Assembly: GCA_035606945.1 (NCBI GenBank)
Contig: DATNDR010000086.1
Coordinates: 9,145-73,144, forward strand
DNA length: 64,000 bases
Direction of reading: 5' to 3'
From: Pseudonocardiaceae bacterium
Lineage (GTDB): Bacteria; Actinomycetota; Actinomycetes; Mycobacteriales; Pseudonocardiaceae
Made by a program: the position numbers and the translations under genes. Under the pieces are notes generated by a model. The model saw nothing but the letters and a program-made list of their open reading frames with translations. It did no database searches and had not been told where the DNA came from. How positions within the stretch are numbered: position 1 is the stretch's first letter; each line of letters opens with the position of its first letter. Positions 17,271 to 32,521 of this stretch are shown piece by piece.

Positions 17271-18088
17271 GGGAGCCAGCTGAGGTGGCCGTGGAGGAGG
17301 GCGTAGCCGACGAAGGCGGCGACGTCGATGAGGGAGTGGGCGGTGATGAGGGGGTAGAGGCGGTGGGTGCGTTGCCAGCTGCGGCCGAAGACCAGGCCCA
17401 TCACCAGGTTGCCTACGAACCCGCCGAAACCCTGGTAGAGGTGGTAGCTACCGCGCAGGGCCGCGCTGGCCAGTAGGGCGGTGCCCTCGCCCGATCCCAG
17501 CTGGCGTAACCGCGTGATCAGGTATCCGACCACGAGGACTTCCTCGGCCAGCGCGTTGGCCACCGCCGCGCCAACCAGCACCGGGACCCGCCACCAGGTG
17601 TCGCCCAACGCCGACGGCAGCACGGTGAGGTTCAGGCCGGCGGCTCGGGCCAGCAGGTACAGCCCCAACCCTGGCCCGCCGATCAGTGCCGCAAGAACGG
17701 CACCCAACCCGATGTCCCGCGCCGCCGGTCGGCGGTACAGACCGATGGTGCGCAGGCCGATGCCACTGCGCCACAGCAGGTAACCGCCCAGACCGGCCCA
17801 CGCCAGCAGTTGGATCATCCCGGCGAGCTGGTAGAACAAGTCGAGCAGCGCAACCTTGCGCACCGGCGCATTGATCGCCACCGACTGACCGGCCAGCGAA
17901 CCCGGGGCGAGCAACGCGTCCACCAGCGCCAGCAGGCTCCGCAACCCCGACAGCCCCAGCGTCACCGCCAGGACCAGGACAACCTCGACGACCAGAGCAC
18001 GACGTTGCCCGGGGTCCGTGACGACCGTAGGCTGCGCCGGACGCGGGAGGGCCAGCCAGCTTCGCAACCCCACCCCGCGCGCGTTCAC
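17267..18088 (-). CDS. CPBP family intramembrane glutamic endopeptidase (CAAX protease-like)
   Basis: GTG at 18088 chosen (VNARGVGLRSW...). Multi-TM, with the EEVLVVGYL (EExxxR-type) motif and the later SYHLYQG / GLVFG histidine motif region. The N-terminal extension of the supplied ORF overlaps the divergent gene. Confidence 0.7.
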   Translation of the reverse strand: MNARGVGLRSWLALPRPAQPTVVTDPGQRRALVVEVVLVLAVTLGLSGLRSLLALVDALLAPGSLAGQSVAINAPVRKVALLDLFYQLAGMIQLLAWAGLGGYLLWRSGIGLRTIGLYRRPAARDIGLGAVLAALIGGPGLGLYLLARAAGLNLTVLPSALGDTWWRVPVLVGAAVANALAEEVLVVGYLITRLRQLGSGEGTALLASAALRGSYHLYQGFGGFVGNLVMGLVFGRSWQRTHRLYPLITAHSLIDVAAFVGYALLHGHLSWLP

Positions 18089-18173
18089 GTCCCCGACGCT
18101 ATCCGCCGCGCCGCGGTCGAGCCTTGGCGACCGCAGCGCGCTCGGCCAGTGGCGCCCCGCGTATCGTGGGCTC

Positions 18174-18551
18174 GTGTGGCGCTTCGTGCTGGCCCGGCGA
18201 TGGTGGGTCGGGCACGTGCTGGTCGTGTTGTGCTGTGGCCTGTTCGTCCGGTTGGGCCGCTGGCAGTGGGATCGGGCGCAGTCACCCACCGGCGGCTGGC
18301 AGAACCTCGGCTACTCGTTGCAATGGCCGCTGTTCGCGGTCGTGCTAGTGGCAGCCTGGATCCGGTTTCTGTGGCTGGAGCGGCATGCGCAAGCCCAGGT
18401 TCGCAGCGATGAGCCCAGCCCTGCACCGGATTTCACTGCACCGGTTCCCCGGCGTCCAGACCACCGACCGATCCCGGAGGACGATCCCGACGATGAGCTC
18501 GCCACGTACAACGCCTTCCTCGCCCGGCTCGCTGAACAGGACCGGCAGTAG
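18174..18551 (+). CDS. hypothetical membrane protein
   Basis: GTG 18174 (VWRFVLARRWWVGHVLVVLCCGLFVRLGRWQW), two TM helices and an acidic C-terminal tail. No named domain recognised. Confidence 0.5.
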   Translation: MWRFVLARRWWVGHVLVVLCCGLFVRLGRWQWDRAQSPTGGWQNLGYSLQWPLFAVVLVAAWIRFLWLERHAQAQVRSDEPSPAPDFTAPVPRRPDHRPIPEDDPDDELATYNAFLARLAEQDRQ

Positions 18552-18870
18552 CACCGACCGGGTCACGGCCCGGTTGCTCGGGTACCGGATCATGGCGTAC
18601 GCCACCGGCGTGATGCTGCTCGTGTTGACCAGCTCCGTGGTGCTGCATTACGGGTTCGGAAACCAGCAGCTATGGTGGAGCGGACCCGTGCACGGCTTTC
18701 TCTACATGGGTTACCTCGTGGCCACGGTAGTGCTGGGCACGTCGGTGCGGTGGCGGCCGGTGCGGATGGTGCTGGTCGCGCTCGCGGGCACTATTCCGTT
18801 CATGTCGTTCGTCGCCGAGCGCAGCGTCACTCGTGAGGTGCGCGGGGAGCTTTCGGCCTCGTCGAAGTAG
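18493..18870 (+). CDS. DUF3817-like integral membrane protein
   Basis: RLLGYRIMAYATGVMLLVL...VHGFLYMGYLV...GTIPFMSFVAE is the pattern typical of DUF3817. The start is uncertain (ATG 18493 overlaps the upstream gene by 59 nt). Confidence 0.55.
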   Translation: MSSPRTTPSSPGSLNRTGSSTDRVTARLLGYRIMAYATGVMLLVLTSSVVLHYGFGNQQLWWSGPVHGFLYMGYLVATVVLGTSVRWRPVRMVLVALAGTIPFMSFVAERSVTREVRGELSASSK

Positions 18871-18937
18871 CCGGTTGGAGTAAGAGCCGGCAAAGAAGTG
18901 GTGAGCCCTGACCGGCCCCGGAGGGAGCCCAGCTAAG

Positions 18938-19846
18938 GTGCCTCAGGTGTCGACGGTGCTGGATCTGCATCCCCCCTGCCCTCCGGGTGTGCCACCCTTG
19001 CTGGCGCGTCTGGTCGATGATGCGGCGTTGTTCCCGCCGTCACGCGCGAACGTGGTCGATACCGTCAAGGCGCACCTCGCTGCCCGGCGCGCGCCGCACG
19101 CCGGCGTGGTCGGTTTTCTGAACTGCCCGATTTCCCGGCTCGGTGCACTGGTCGGTGCGTTGCGCAAGGCCCGTCCGGTGCGGCCGGTGGCGTTGTCGCT
19201 GGTTGCCGATACCGGCCTGGGTGGCCTGCCCAAGGCCATCTCCACCGCGCTGGACAACCCGAAGCTGCTGGATCTGCGAATGATCGAGGTGCCGGCACCC
19301 TCCGACGTGGATGCCAACTGGCTGGTCCAGCTCACTGAATTCGTACCGGACGATGTGGTCCGGGTGGTGGAGCCACGCCGTGGCCGGCCGGAGTGGTTGA
19401 CGGGCGTGCGCCGGGTAGCCGAGGTCGGCTGCTGGCCCAAGCTGCGGTGCGGCGGAACGTCGGTGGAGTCGTTCCCCAGCATCGAGGAGGTGGCCGATTT
19501 CCTGGCCGTCACGACCAACGCCGGCGCCCCGTTCAAGGCGACCGCCGGGCTACGCCACGCGGTCCGCCATCATGATCCGGCTACCGGGCTGACCCACCAC
19601 GGGCTGCTCAACATGCTCGTCGGGACCGCCCACGCGGTATCCGGGAGCAACGCCCAGGAGGCCCTGCGGTGCACCGACGCCGCCGCGCTGGCCGCTGAGG
19701 CCGCCGCCTTCTCTGCGGAGACCGCGCGAAGTGTCCGTGAGGTGTTCGCCTGCTTCGGGTCGGTGTCGCTGGCCGATCCGGTGACCGAACTGGTCCGGCT
19801 GGGACTGCTGCCCAGCCCCGAGCACCGCCGCGCGTCCCAGGCTTGA
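18938..19846 (+). CDS. conserved hypothetical protein
   Basis: 302-aa ORF with coding-like composition. Its position upstream of pheA resembles the Rv3839-Rv3838c neighbourhood as I recall it. No motif recognised. Confidence 0.5.
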   Translation: MPQVSTVLDLHPPCPPGVPPLLARLVDDAALFPPSRANVVDTVKAHLAARRAPHAGVVGFLNCPISRLGALVGALRKARPVRPVALSLVADTGLGGLPKAISTALDNPKLLDLRMIEVPAPSDVDANWLVQLTEFVPDDVVRVVEPRRGRPEWLTGVRRVAEVGCWPKLRCGGTSVESFPSIEEVADFLAVTTNAGAPFKATAGLRHAVRHHDPATGLTHHGLLNMLVGTAHAVSGSNAQEALRCTDAAALAAEAAAFSAETARSVREVFACFGSVSLADPVTELVRLGLLPSPEHRRASQA

Positions 19847-24986: not shown

Positions 24987-27515
<2,529 letters not shown>

Positions 27516-30367: not shown

Positions 30368-30380
30368 TCCATGTACAATA

Positions 30381-30413
30381 CACCGGTGCCGTCCTCCCCG
30401 GACGGCACCGGTG
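30381..30413. terminator. strong hairpin between convergent DUF2231-like gene and lsr2 (bidirectional terminator candidate)
   Basis: CACCGGTGCCGTCC (30381-30394), loop TCCCC, GGACGGCACCGGTG (30400-30413). The 14-bp stem is perfect. Confidence 0.7.
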
Positions 30414-30424
30414 GCCTACTGACC

Positions 30425-30775
30425 TTAGTTTCCCTTGTGGTAAGCATCCAATACCTCAGCCGGGATACGTCCACGGTCTGAGACGTTGAAACCGTTCTTA
30501 CGGGCCCACTCGCGGATCGCCGCGTTCTGCTCACGGTCTACCGATGCCCGACCACCGCTACTCGCGCGGCGGGCCGGACCACCTGCGGCCTTGCGGCGCC
30601 CGCCCGCCTTCCGAGCGTTGCTGACATAGTCAGCCAGCGAGTCACGCAGCTTCCCCGCGTTACCCGCCGACAGATCAATCTCGTAAGACACGCCGTCGAT
30701 ACCAAACTCAACGGTCTCTTCGGCAGTACCTCCGTCGAGGTCATCGACCAAGGTTACGGTGACCTTCTGCGCCAT
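30425..30775 (-). CDS. lsr2: nucleoid-associated protein Lsr2
   Basis: ATG 30775: [36 protein letters not shown]...[30 protein letters not shown]. This shows the canonical Lsr2 N-terminal dimerisation domain and C-terminal AT-hook-like RGR DNA-binding domain. Confidence 0.95.
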
Positions 30776-30847
30776 GCGCGTCGTCCTCCCTCGGGGACGT
30801 AGTGGAGGGAGCCATCGCACGACGACTCCACAACGACAACGAGCAGG

Positions 30848-31725
30848 TTAGCCCATTTCCCTACAGAATGCGAAATCAACCCACCCATTGTGGTCGTACC
30901 AGCGGAAACACTGATGGTGTCTCGGATACACGAACCGGTGAGCGACATCAGCAGCCGGTCCATCCCCATTCCCAGCGGCCACTGTCGCGGCATTCCATAC
31001 TCCATCGCAGTCGTCAAGTCCTCGTCCAGTGGCATCACCGGTCACGGTGAGCGCGACTTGCGCCTCGAAACGTTCTCGTTGCACCACCGGGGTCAACCAG
31101 CTGGAGAGTAGGCAGTGACCGACTCAACGGATAGGATCTGGAGATCCCATTTCTCGACCAGACCTGCGCCGCTGCGGTGCCGCCGAGTCGGCGGACAGGT
31201 GTCCACCTGGATGTCCTTCGAAGGGCGGGCCGTATAGATCGAACACCACGAGGTGCTCGAACAACTCTTCTGCCGGCTTTACCGACTAGCCAGTCGGGAT
31301 GCACTGTGATGTGCGTGGTAGAGCAACTCGTCATGACGCGTCGCGGACTGATCTGTTCGCCGAGCGACTTCTGCGCCATCCCATGGGAGTCGGTGCGAGC
31401 CTCCAGCGATGCACCCCCATACATGGTCTGCCGGATCGGTGTCTCAACGTCGATGGACTCGAATGCGGCAACTCCCCGATCGAACGCATCAGTGCGCGTC
31501 CTGGCAGTGCGCCGGGCCGCATCGCCGACGATCAGATTGCGATAACGGTTGACCACCCAGGGTTTCCTCGGCCAGTTCCTCGGTGTGCGGTCGGAAGTGG
31601 ACGTAACGCTTTTGCGGCCGCACGCCATTCTCGACACTTGTACCGACAACCTCCGGTCGAACGAATTGGTGGTCACGGTGGGCAACCTCGTGGTCTGCGG
31701 TAGCCGTCGCGTCGCACCGCTACCG
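30848..31725 (-). pseudogene. lysS: lysyl-tRNA synthetase (class II) pseudogene
   Basis: LysS-like segments lie in three different frames on the minus strand. They read NRYRNLIVGDAARRTARTR...FESIDVETPIRQTMYGGAS; GLVEKWDLQILSVESVTAYSPAG*; TPVVQRERFEAQ; and [14 protein letters not shown]...[13 protein letters not shown]. The remnant is only ~0.88 kb against ~1.5 kb expected, and the N-terminal part is missing. It sits in the syntenic lsr2-lysS position. Confidence 0.85.
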
Positions 31726-31732
31726 TCTGTCC

Positions 31733-32521
31733 GTGGATGAGATGCACGCCCGGCGGGCGCGCTGTTTCGGATCCGTGGCGGCCAGCTACGCCAAGCACCG
31801 GCCGGATTACCCGGAACAGGCGGTGACGTGGGCGTTGGGCTCGGTACCGGACAGTGCGCGGGTACTCGATCTCGCTGCGGGCACTGGCAAGCTCACTGAG
31901 GCGATGCTGCGGTGTGGAATACCCGCGGCGGCAGTACTGGCCGTCGAACCAGACGACCGCATGCGCACGCAACTGTCCGCCCTGCTACCCACGGTCACGG
32001 TCCGCTTCGGGACGGCGGAGGAGATTCCGGCCGACGATGGGGCGCTGCACGCGGTCCTCGTCGGACAGGCGTTTCACTGGTTCGACCCCGACCGGGCGCT
32101 CGGCGAGATTACCCGCGTGCTGCGACCAGGGGGTGTACTGGCCGCGCTCGGCAACACCGAGGACGACTCGGTGGACTGGGTGGCCGAGCTGGCTGCGGCG
32201 GCACAGGCGCAGCGATCGGCCGGCATGGCCGGACGTGGCTTCGCCGACCTGCCCGAGCACCCGGCGTTCAGCGACCCGCAGCTGCGCGAATTTCGCTGGC
32301 GCTGGCCGCGCACCATCGACTCACTGCTGGACACCGTGTCGACCCATTCATGGGCCGTCACCACCTCACCCGATCAACGGGCCGCTACCTTCGCAGCGCT
32401 TCGCCGCTTCCTCGAAACGCATCCCAGCACCCGCGACGGCAGCTTCGAGCTCCCGATGCAGACACTGGTGCTCCGCACCACCCGCCGCGCCTGGAGCTGC
32501 TGGCGGCCGGGAGGGGCATGA
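31733..32521 (+). CDS. class I SAM-dependent methyltransferase
   Basis: VLDLAAGTGKLTEAM (motif I), LHAVLVGQAFHWF, LRPGGVLAAL. Confidence 0.8.
   Translation: MDEMHARRARCFGSVAASYAKHRPDYPEQAVTWALGSVPDSARVLDLAAGTGKLTEAMLRCGIPAAAVLAVEPDDRMRTQLSALLPTVTVRFGTAEEIPADDGALHAVLVGQAFHWFDPDRALGEITRVLRPGGVLAALGNTEDDSVDWVAELAAAAQAQRSAGMAGRGFADLPEHPAFSDPQLREFRWRWPRTIDSLLDTVSTHSWAVTTSPDQRAATFAALRRFLETHPSTRDGSFELPMQTLVLRTTRRAWSCWRPGGA

Follow-up and report, generated by a model that had tools for sequence, protein, structure and literature searches.

A decayed class II lysyl-tRNA synthetase gene beside lsr2, and an intact class I enzyme elsewhere in the genome, in an uncultured soil actinomycete

To our knowledge, lysyl-tRNA synthetase (LysRS) is the only aminoacyl-tRNA synthetase that is found in two unrelated structural classes. 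The patchy distribution of these classes is attributed to lateral transfer and subsequent loss, and a transient stage with two enzymes is deduced from phylogeny. A class I enzyme can reportedly serve a bacterium as its sole LysRS, since Jester et al., in PNAS, are said to have replaced lysS of Bacillus subtilis with a class I LysRS, and resistance to lysine analogues was reportedly observed as well. Shaul, Nussinov and Pupko (2006; PMC1475646) described the displacement of class II by class I LysRS through lateral transfer in Streptomyces, spirochaetes and alpha-proteobacteria; they inferred the path phylogenetically, the Streptomyces ancestor included, with a two-enzyme transition stage, and suggested that the newcomer gave an advantage against LysRS inhibitors. 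In Bacillus cereus, lysK and lysS coexist, and the class I LysRS is controlled by a T-box (PMC2916919).

We analyzed a window of 64,000 nucleotides (G000:C122:9145-73144; positions given below without a contig are those of the window) from an uncultured soil actinomycete represented by a metagenome-assembled genome, G000, of 4.74 Mb in 137 contigs, with an estimated completeness of 100% and an estimated contamination of 4%. The locus resembles the lsr2-lysS locus of Mycobacterium tuberculosis (Rv3597c-Rv3598c) in its order clpC, lsr2, lysS, coaX, panD, panC, and the intact orthologues in the genus are, as in M. tuberculosis, ordinary class II LysRSs of about 500 amino acids with OB and catalytic domains. 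M. tuberculosis also has lysX (Rv1640c), whereas in G000 lysS is a pseudogene and no lysX-type fusion was found. Nor is the organism a Mycobacterium; its genus consists of uncultured soil actinomycetes labelled 'Pseudonocardiaceae bacterium'. We consider it highly probable that the segment at 30885-31676 represents what is left of the native class II lysS, a gene that became dispensable and died after lysK, the gene of a class I LysRS, entered the lineage.

This history shares with the cases described by Shaul and colleagues (PMC1475646) a class II background, the acquisition of a class I enzyme, the loss of the class II enzyme, and an intermediate with both. It also differs from them. The discarded gene is still visible here as a dated pseudogene, whereas pseudogenes are not mentioned in that study; the lysK insertion site has an empty counterpart in sister species; and all stages (class II only, both enzymes, class I with a pseudogene, and class I with lysS fully deleted) occur in one genus, in which class I is represented by at least four lineages. 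Displacement of a class II LysRS by a non-orthologous class I enzyme is a known kind of event, and it is unusually well preserved and recurrent here. No earlier report of a lysS pseudogene left by class I displacement was found in the literature searched. What is new is a datable pseudogene, an identifiable insertion site of the replacement, and the presence of all stages and several independent replacements in one genus.

An intact lsr2 gene (30425-30775, minus strand; 116 amino acids, PF11774 and PF23359), the downstream neighbor of lysS, served as the synteny anchor. Three plus-strand genes have been inserted between it and clpC (24987-27515, minus strand). On its other side, a stretch of about 0.9 kb holds no credible open reading frame and leads to a class I SAM-dependent methyltransferase gene (31733-32521, plus strand; PF08241 and PF13649) that diverges from lysS, with coaX, panD and panC beyond. 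The preliminary description of this DNA had pointed out that the remnant abuts the methyltransferase gene. The abutment is real, but it is ancestral, since relatives with an intact lysS have the methyltransferase gene in the same divergent position.

That description had also placed a heavily decayed syntenic lysS at 30848-31725 (about 0.88 kb). Alignment of the DNA with the intact syntenic lysS genes of two sister species, G009 and G068, confirmed this heavy decay of the syntenic class II gene into a pseudogene and put its boundaries slightly inside that interval, at 30885-31676 on the minus strand. Only 792 of 1,500 ancestral nucleotides are left, and 18 indel events, 13 of them frameshifting, separate the remnant from the intact orthologues. 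The in-frame deletions measure 369, 159, 129, 24 and 6 bp. The largest (junction at 31655-31665, minus strand) removed codons 6-128 and with them the OB-fold anticodon-binding domain, in agreement with the earlier claim that the N-terminal anticodon-binding part is lost. The 159-bp and 24-bp deletions (junctions at 31401-31413, minus strand) took out motif 2 (...RPF...FRNEG...) of the class II catalytic core, and the 129-bp deletion (junction at 31368-31376, minus strand) took out codons about 288-330. The ancestral GTG start region is still present at about 31676, while the stop codon at about 30885 has mutated from TGA to TGG.

Over 785 aligned nucleotides, the remnant is 79-80% identical in DNA to the intact G009 and G068 genes, and at aligned codons it is 72% identical in amino acids to G009 LysS. 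This DNA identity, together with the same position in the locus, marks it as a pseudogene of the family rather than a functional member, and both its synteny (the interval between lsr2 and the methyltransferase gene) and its sequence place its descent in the class II LysRS family. The LysS-like peptides that had been noticed in three minus-strand frames with intervening stops were all recovered when we translated 30776-31780: VEKWDLQILSVESVTAYSPAG, which ends at a stop, and a 32-residue peptide lie in one minus-strand frame, and VVQRERFEAQVAL lies in another. Likewise, tblastn gave matches in three frames with stops between them. The codon-aligned conceptual translation matched PF00152 (E 1.1e-15) in its C-terminal third only, and the motif 3 region (GMGMDRLL) and the last third are the sole parts that still match this domain. 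No PF01336 (OB fold) match was found in the conceptual translation, whereas intact G009 LysS has this domain at residues 64-141. The best match to TIGR00499 (lysS_bact) at the locus scored 34.3 bits against an equivalog cut-off of 427.6 bits, spanned model positions 389-487 and contained two TGA codons. Class II motifs 1-3 in one open frame were not found in the remnant, with motif 2 deleted and the reading frame shifted 13 times.

The remnant had further been described as AT-enriched relative to its flanks, and its GC content is indeed 0.58-0.62 compared with 0.66-0.72 in the flanks. The proposal that this enrichment is a sign of old decay was rejected, because intact lysS in sister species has an equal GC content (0.606-0.617, against 0.610 for the remnant and 0.672 for the genome); the low value is a trait of the gene itself. 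That the decay is old nevertheless holds on other grounds. Of 61 genomes from this genus that were searched at the DNA level, most yielded the lsr2 locus. In G009 and G068, a class II lysS of 499 codons with PF01336 and PF00152, scoring above the TIGR00499 cut-off, lies between lsr2 and the same divergent methyltransferase gene. The closest relatives of G000, namely G008 and G011 (locus DNA 92% and 86% identical, ValRS 93%, compared with 84% for the locus and 87% for valS in G009), also carry decayed lysS copies. Three single-base frameshifts are common to G000, G008 and G011, three further lesions are common to G000 and G008, and each of the three remnants has private deletions.

Divergence between the three pairs of remnants is about equal at codon positions 1, 2 and 3 (0.14/0.17/0.18, 0.22/0.21/0.21 and 0.24/0.26/0.28), whereas the intact G009 and G068 genes differ by 0.06/0.05/0.33. 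Over all sites, the remnants differ by 0.17-0.29, which is about equal to the divergence at four-fold sites of valS in the same genomes (0.20-0.23). The shared frameshifts and the equal divergence at all codon positions indicate that lysS was already dead in the ancestor of G000, G008 and G011. These comparisons show the pseudogene to have evolved neutrally since before these three lineages split; the inactivation came after the split from the G009/G068 lineage. In G011, the remnant is broken about 140 nucleotides from the contig start (G011:C169:1-140) by unrelated sequence of lower GC content at the contig end, possibly where an inserted repeat or IS begins and interrupted the assembly.

Since LysRS is essential, the preliminary description had argued that a second functional copy or a functional replacement must exist. 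[quoted passage not shown] Specifically, no other class II LysRS or lysX-type fusion was found in the G000 assembly with the TIGR00499 profile or with tblastn using queries of both class II types present in the genus, the syntenic (S) type and a second (P) type. Apart from the remnant, the TIGR00499 matches were AspRS (C120) and a frameshifted archaeal-type Asp/AsnRS-like gene (C94), both below the cut-off as LysRS, and tblastn with both types hit the remnant, AspRS and the same broken gene. The remnant is also not a duplicated partial copy beside an intact lysS, as none was found adjacent to it or elsewhere in the assembly. It is extremely improbable that another class II enzyme, whether the P-type paralogue or an MprF fusion of the lysX type, supplies lysyl-tRNA in G000 in place of a class I enzyme: the P type is the only LysRS detected in about 13 members of the genus and LysX-like fusions occur in a few, but neither was found in G000 by tblastn with P-type and S-type queries.

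The class I gene, lysK (C93:17587-19254, minus strand), is intact and encodes 555 amino acids. The protein scored 315.1 bits against TIGR00467 (lysS_arch; cut-off 147.55) over residues 25-544 and 342.7 bits against PF01921 (cut-off 27), and it aligned at full length (residues 8-539, E 3.2e-82) to the class I LysRS of Pyrococcus horikoshii, 1IRX_A. In this alignment, its HLGN falls on HVGN (HxGN) and its KMSSSAG on KMSGSKG (KMSxS), and a CxxC...CxC cluster is present. Divergence at the three codon positions (0.03/0.03/0.13-0.18) corresponds to purifying selection. In four genomes (G000, G008, G011 and G059), lysK is the sole LysRS. G000 encodes tRNA-Lys(CUU) and tRNA-Lys(UUU), and the former has the same sequence (100% identity) in genomes of the genus with class I only, class II only or both. 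From this identity across LysRS states, we conclude that the tRNA remained unchanged during the synthetase swap; co-evolution of tRNA-Lys with the synthetase class was rejected for the same reason.

Two side observations concern these genes. The archaeal-type Asp/AsnRS-like class II paralogue of G000 (C94:43471-44443, outside the window) is interrupted at the contig end by a frameshift and a TGA. It is intact (438-447 amino acids) in G011, G013 and G019, and the main AspRS of G000 (C120, 600 amino acids) is intact as well; the C94 gene looks like a second decayed synthetase paralogue in G000. Separately, the 3' half of tRNA-Lys(CUU) is repeated as a perfect 45-nucleotide copy at C40:89827-89871 (outside the window), 6 kb downstream of the tRNA gene (C40:83805-83880), and similar half-copies occur in G003, G008, G016, G017, G055, G057 and G062. 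Such 3' half-copies typically mark the integration of an element into a tRNA gene.

In G000, lysK is carried on about 1.87 kb of DNA (C93 about 17467-19335) with valS on one side and a WXG100-like gene on the other, and G008, G011 and G059 have it at the same site, directly upstream of valS. In G009 and G068, the nearest species that retain lysS, the site is empty. Because their valS flank continues directly into the sequence that follows lysK in G000, this stretch is a clean presence/absence difference. We infer that lysK was gained at the valS site rather than lost from G009 and G068, on the basis of the cassette boundaries, the gene contexts and the gene tree rather than a rooted species tree; the number of independent events in the genus is judged on the same basis. 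No target-site duplications or terminal repeats were seen at the ends of the lysK cassette. Just after the lysK stop codon lies a palindrome (C93:17516-17573; GTGAACTCGACnCCAGCGAC ... GTCGCTGGnGTCGAGTTCAC) with 20-nucleotide arms and an 18-nucleotide spacer, which is a member of a REP-like family dispersed through the G000 genome in at least 20 paired copies. We had considered this hairpin as a member of the window's palindromic family with ATGGAGACATATCGGGG arms, and rejected this because it is part of a different dispersed family.

A rival explanation is an artifact of assembly or binning. An intact lysS might have been left unassembled or unbinned, the frameshifts might be sequencing errors, and the contig that carries lysK might be a contaminant; G000 is a metagenome-assembled genome in 137 pieces with some estimated contamination, and a LysRS gene can be missing from a bin that is 97% complete, as G073 shows (see below). 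We nevertheless judge an artifact of this kind to be very unlikely. The five multi-codon deletions and 13 frameshifts include several that are common to three independently assembled genomes, and this recurrence of the same lesions disfavors sequencing error, as does the neutral codon-position divergence of the remnant, which errors would not produce. G000, G008, G011 and G059 all lack a class II LysRS, and in all of them lysK sits at one and the same site beside valS. On either side of lysK, the sequence is 84-93% identical to DNA of sister species, and because the flanks on C93 and the contig of the window show the same affinities to the same sister genomes, mis-binning of C93 is disfavored as well.

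Displacement of lysS by lysK remains the reading that we prefer, and it would have proceeded in three steps, in an order that we reconstruct. The lineage would first have gained lysK, then passed through a stage with both enzymes, as still exists in six other species of the genus, and selection on lysS would then have relaxed, with decay of the gene to follow. LysK alone would now charge both tRNA-Lys species. It may have been favored at first because lysine analogues, or natural inhibitors of the class II enzyme, did not affect it, as proposed in general terms by Shaul and colleagues (PMC1475646). The replacement of Jester et al. 2003 was a laboratory construct, whereas G000 would represent a natural event with a class I enzyme as sole LysRS; the analogue resistance of that construct is only hypothesized as a selective driver here.

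Across the genus, we sampled 77 genomes, all of them metagenome-assembled. An intact syntenic lysS was found in about 28 of the 77, and an aligned decayed or deleted lysS in 14 (G000, G008, G011, G017, G042, G054, G056, G057, G065, G073, G074, G076, G016 and G018); about 10 more genomes lack a syntenic lysS by indirect evidence. A class I LysRS, a second class II paralogue, or both were present in 13 of the 14 genomes with aligned decayed or deleted loci. The exception is G073 (97% complete), which has a short decayed lysS beside lsr2 (C89:12000-12940). Searches of its whole genome yielded neither a class I LysRS at E below 1e-20 nor a class II LysRS at E below 1e-30; an assembly gap is the probable cause.

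The syntenic lysS and a class I gene occur together in six genomes (G002, G004, G045, G047, G050 and G052), and nine genomes have class I only, among them G059, from which the lsr2 locus was not recovered. Class II only was found in G009, G068 and G005, class I with a lysS remnant in G000, G008, G011, G017, G057 and G065, and class I with a fully deleted lysS in G016. The P-type class II LysRS shares 42% identity with the syntenic type, from which it also differs at the N-terminus, and its scores of 490-502 bits against TIGR00499 exceed the cut-off; the genomes in which it is the only LysRS detected have a decayed or missing syntenic lysS. Because the deletion patterns differ between clades, decay happened several times. 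The features of non-orthologous displacement are all present in the genus: an analogue exists, the original is dead, relatives keep the original, and intermediates with both enzymes occur.

Individual genomes add further detail. In G018, a syntenic lysS fragment of about 70 amino acids remains beside lsr2 (C3 about 137700-138400), its P-type copy (C4:81365-82501) lacks the N-terminus and contains an in-frame TAG, and a class I gene of the K3 lineage (see below) is present. Both class II genes of G018 are pseudogenes, and this species probably relies on its K3 class I LysRS. In G021, the P-type gene adjoins a class I gene of the K2 lineage (C475:17918-21014).

The class I tree resolved four lineages in the genus. 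K1, to which G000 lysK belongs, forms a clade confined to the genus (support 98) and close to Nocardia sequences; K2 (G047, G021, G045 and G002) groups with Solirubrobacterales; K3 (G016 and G018) lies inside the Streptomyces/Micromonosporaceae type; and K4 (G074 and G057) is 28% identical to K1. Homologues of lysK within K1 that are 77-95% identical occur in G076, G052, G065, G023, G004 and G050, each in a different gene context. They share only the open reading frame and a leader of about 80 bp, in which a TAnnnT box and a GGAGG site precede the GTG start. The K1 site of G065 is empty in G000 (C8:91857-91947), and the G065 cassette, like that of G000, ends at a long palindrome. Third-position divergence of K1 between G000 and G052 or G076 is 0.19-0.20, compared with 0.37-0.40 for native lysS between the corresponding clades and 0.18 for K1 between G000 and G008. 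These values suggest that K1 spread within the genus, although a different codon bias could contribute to the low divergence.

A broader reading of these patterns can be offered tentatively, and we regard it as possible but on balance doubtful. According to it, a class I LysRS entered the genus at least four times (K1-K4) and the native lysS decayed independently after each arrival, in a recurrent and ongoing switching of class. K1, the commonest of the lineages, would be a self-contained mobile unit, made up of the open reading frame and its short leader, that occupies a different intergenic site in almost every species, with clean empty sites in relatives and a synonymous divergence below that of native genes for the clades compared. 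The driver would be selection in soil by lysine analogues or by natural products that inhibit class II LysRS, and lysK would have served first as a resistance gene and later as a housekeeping gene.

The gene next to lysK has a history of its own. Across 29 genomes whose valS loci were compared, the identity of ValRS to that of G000 steps down within the genus (93, 87, 84, 65-61, 56-53 and 44-40%), unlike that of syntenic LysS, which stays at 83-90% between the same genomes. This suggests that valS itself may have been replaced in some lineages and not been vertically inherited throughout. Given this stepwise fall from 93% to 40%, ValRS was dropped as a genus-wide species marker, and valS was used as a marker within the close clade only.

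Another explanation concerns why part of the remnant survives and is compatible with the displacement of lysS by lysK. The 3' part could have been kept because it contains promoter or leader sequence of lsr2 and is under selection for lsr2 expression. The leader between the old lysS stop and the lsr2 start (30776-30884, minus strand; about 110 nucleotides) is 96-99% identical across species, whereas the neighboring sequence differs by 15-25%, which suggests that it is a regulatory region under strong constraint. By sliding identity, the last 80 nucleotides or so of lysS are 85-91% identical compared with 0.75-0.83 further upstream, and in many members of the genus with a decayed lysS the surviving piece is the 3' end beside lsr2. 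However, this end of lysS also encodes the best-conserved portion of the protein (motif 3), and G016 has an intact lsr2 without any remnant. In addition, no sigma-70-like promoter or terminator was found in a scan of 30380-31800, and Rfam returned nothing credible in the remnant locus, as was the case upstream of lysK (no T-box or other riboswitch). We think it unlikely that control of lsr2 preserved part of the remnant.

Decay of lysS after the arrival of lysK, the reading that we favor, gives G000 a class II background with an additional, laterally acquired class I gene, as in B. cereus, and six members of the genus still keep both enzymes. The two systems differ in that the Rfam search upstream of G000 lysK revealed no T-box or other element of the kind that controls the B. 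cereus gene. Because the class II gene of G000 is dead, its lysK would be a housekeeping enzyme and not an accessory one as in B. cereus.

Taken together, the locus provides direct physical evidence for the path of transfer followed by loss, with a dated pseudogene, an insertion site, and sister species at each stage. The identity of tRNA-Lys across LysRS states means that the swap did not need a change in the tRNA. For annotation, a missing lysS in Mycobacteriales-like metagenome-assembled genomes need not indicate incompleteness. If K1 is truly a mobile cassette whose spread was driven by inhibitors, this genus would be a tractable system for studying why and how an essential translation enzyme is replaced.
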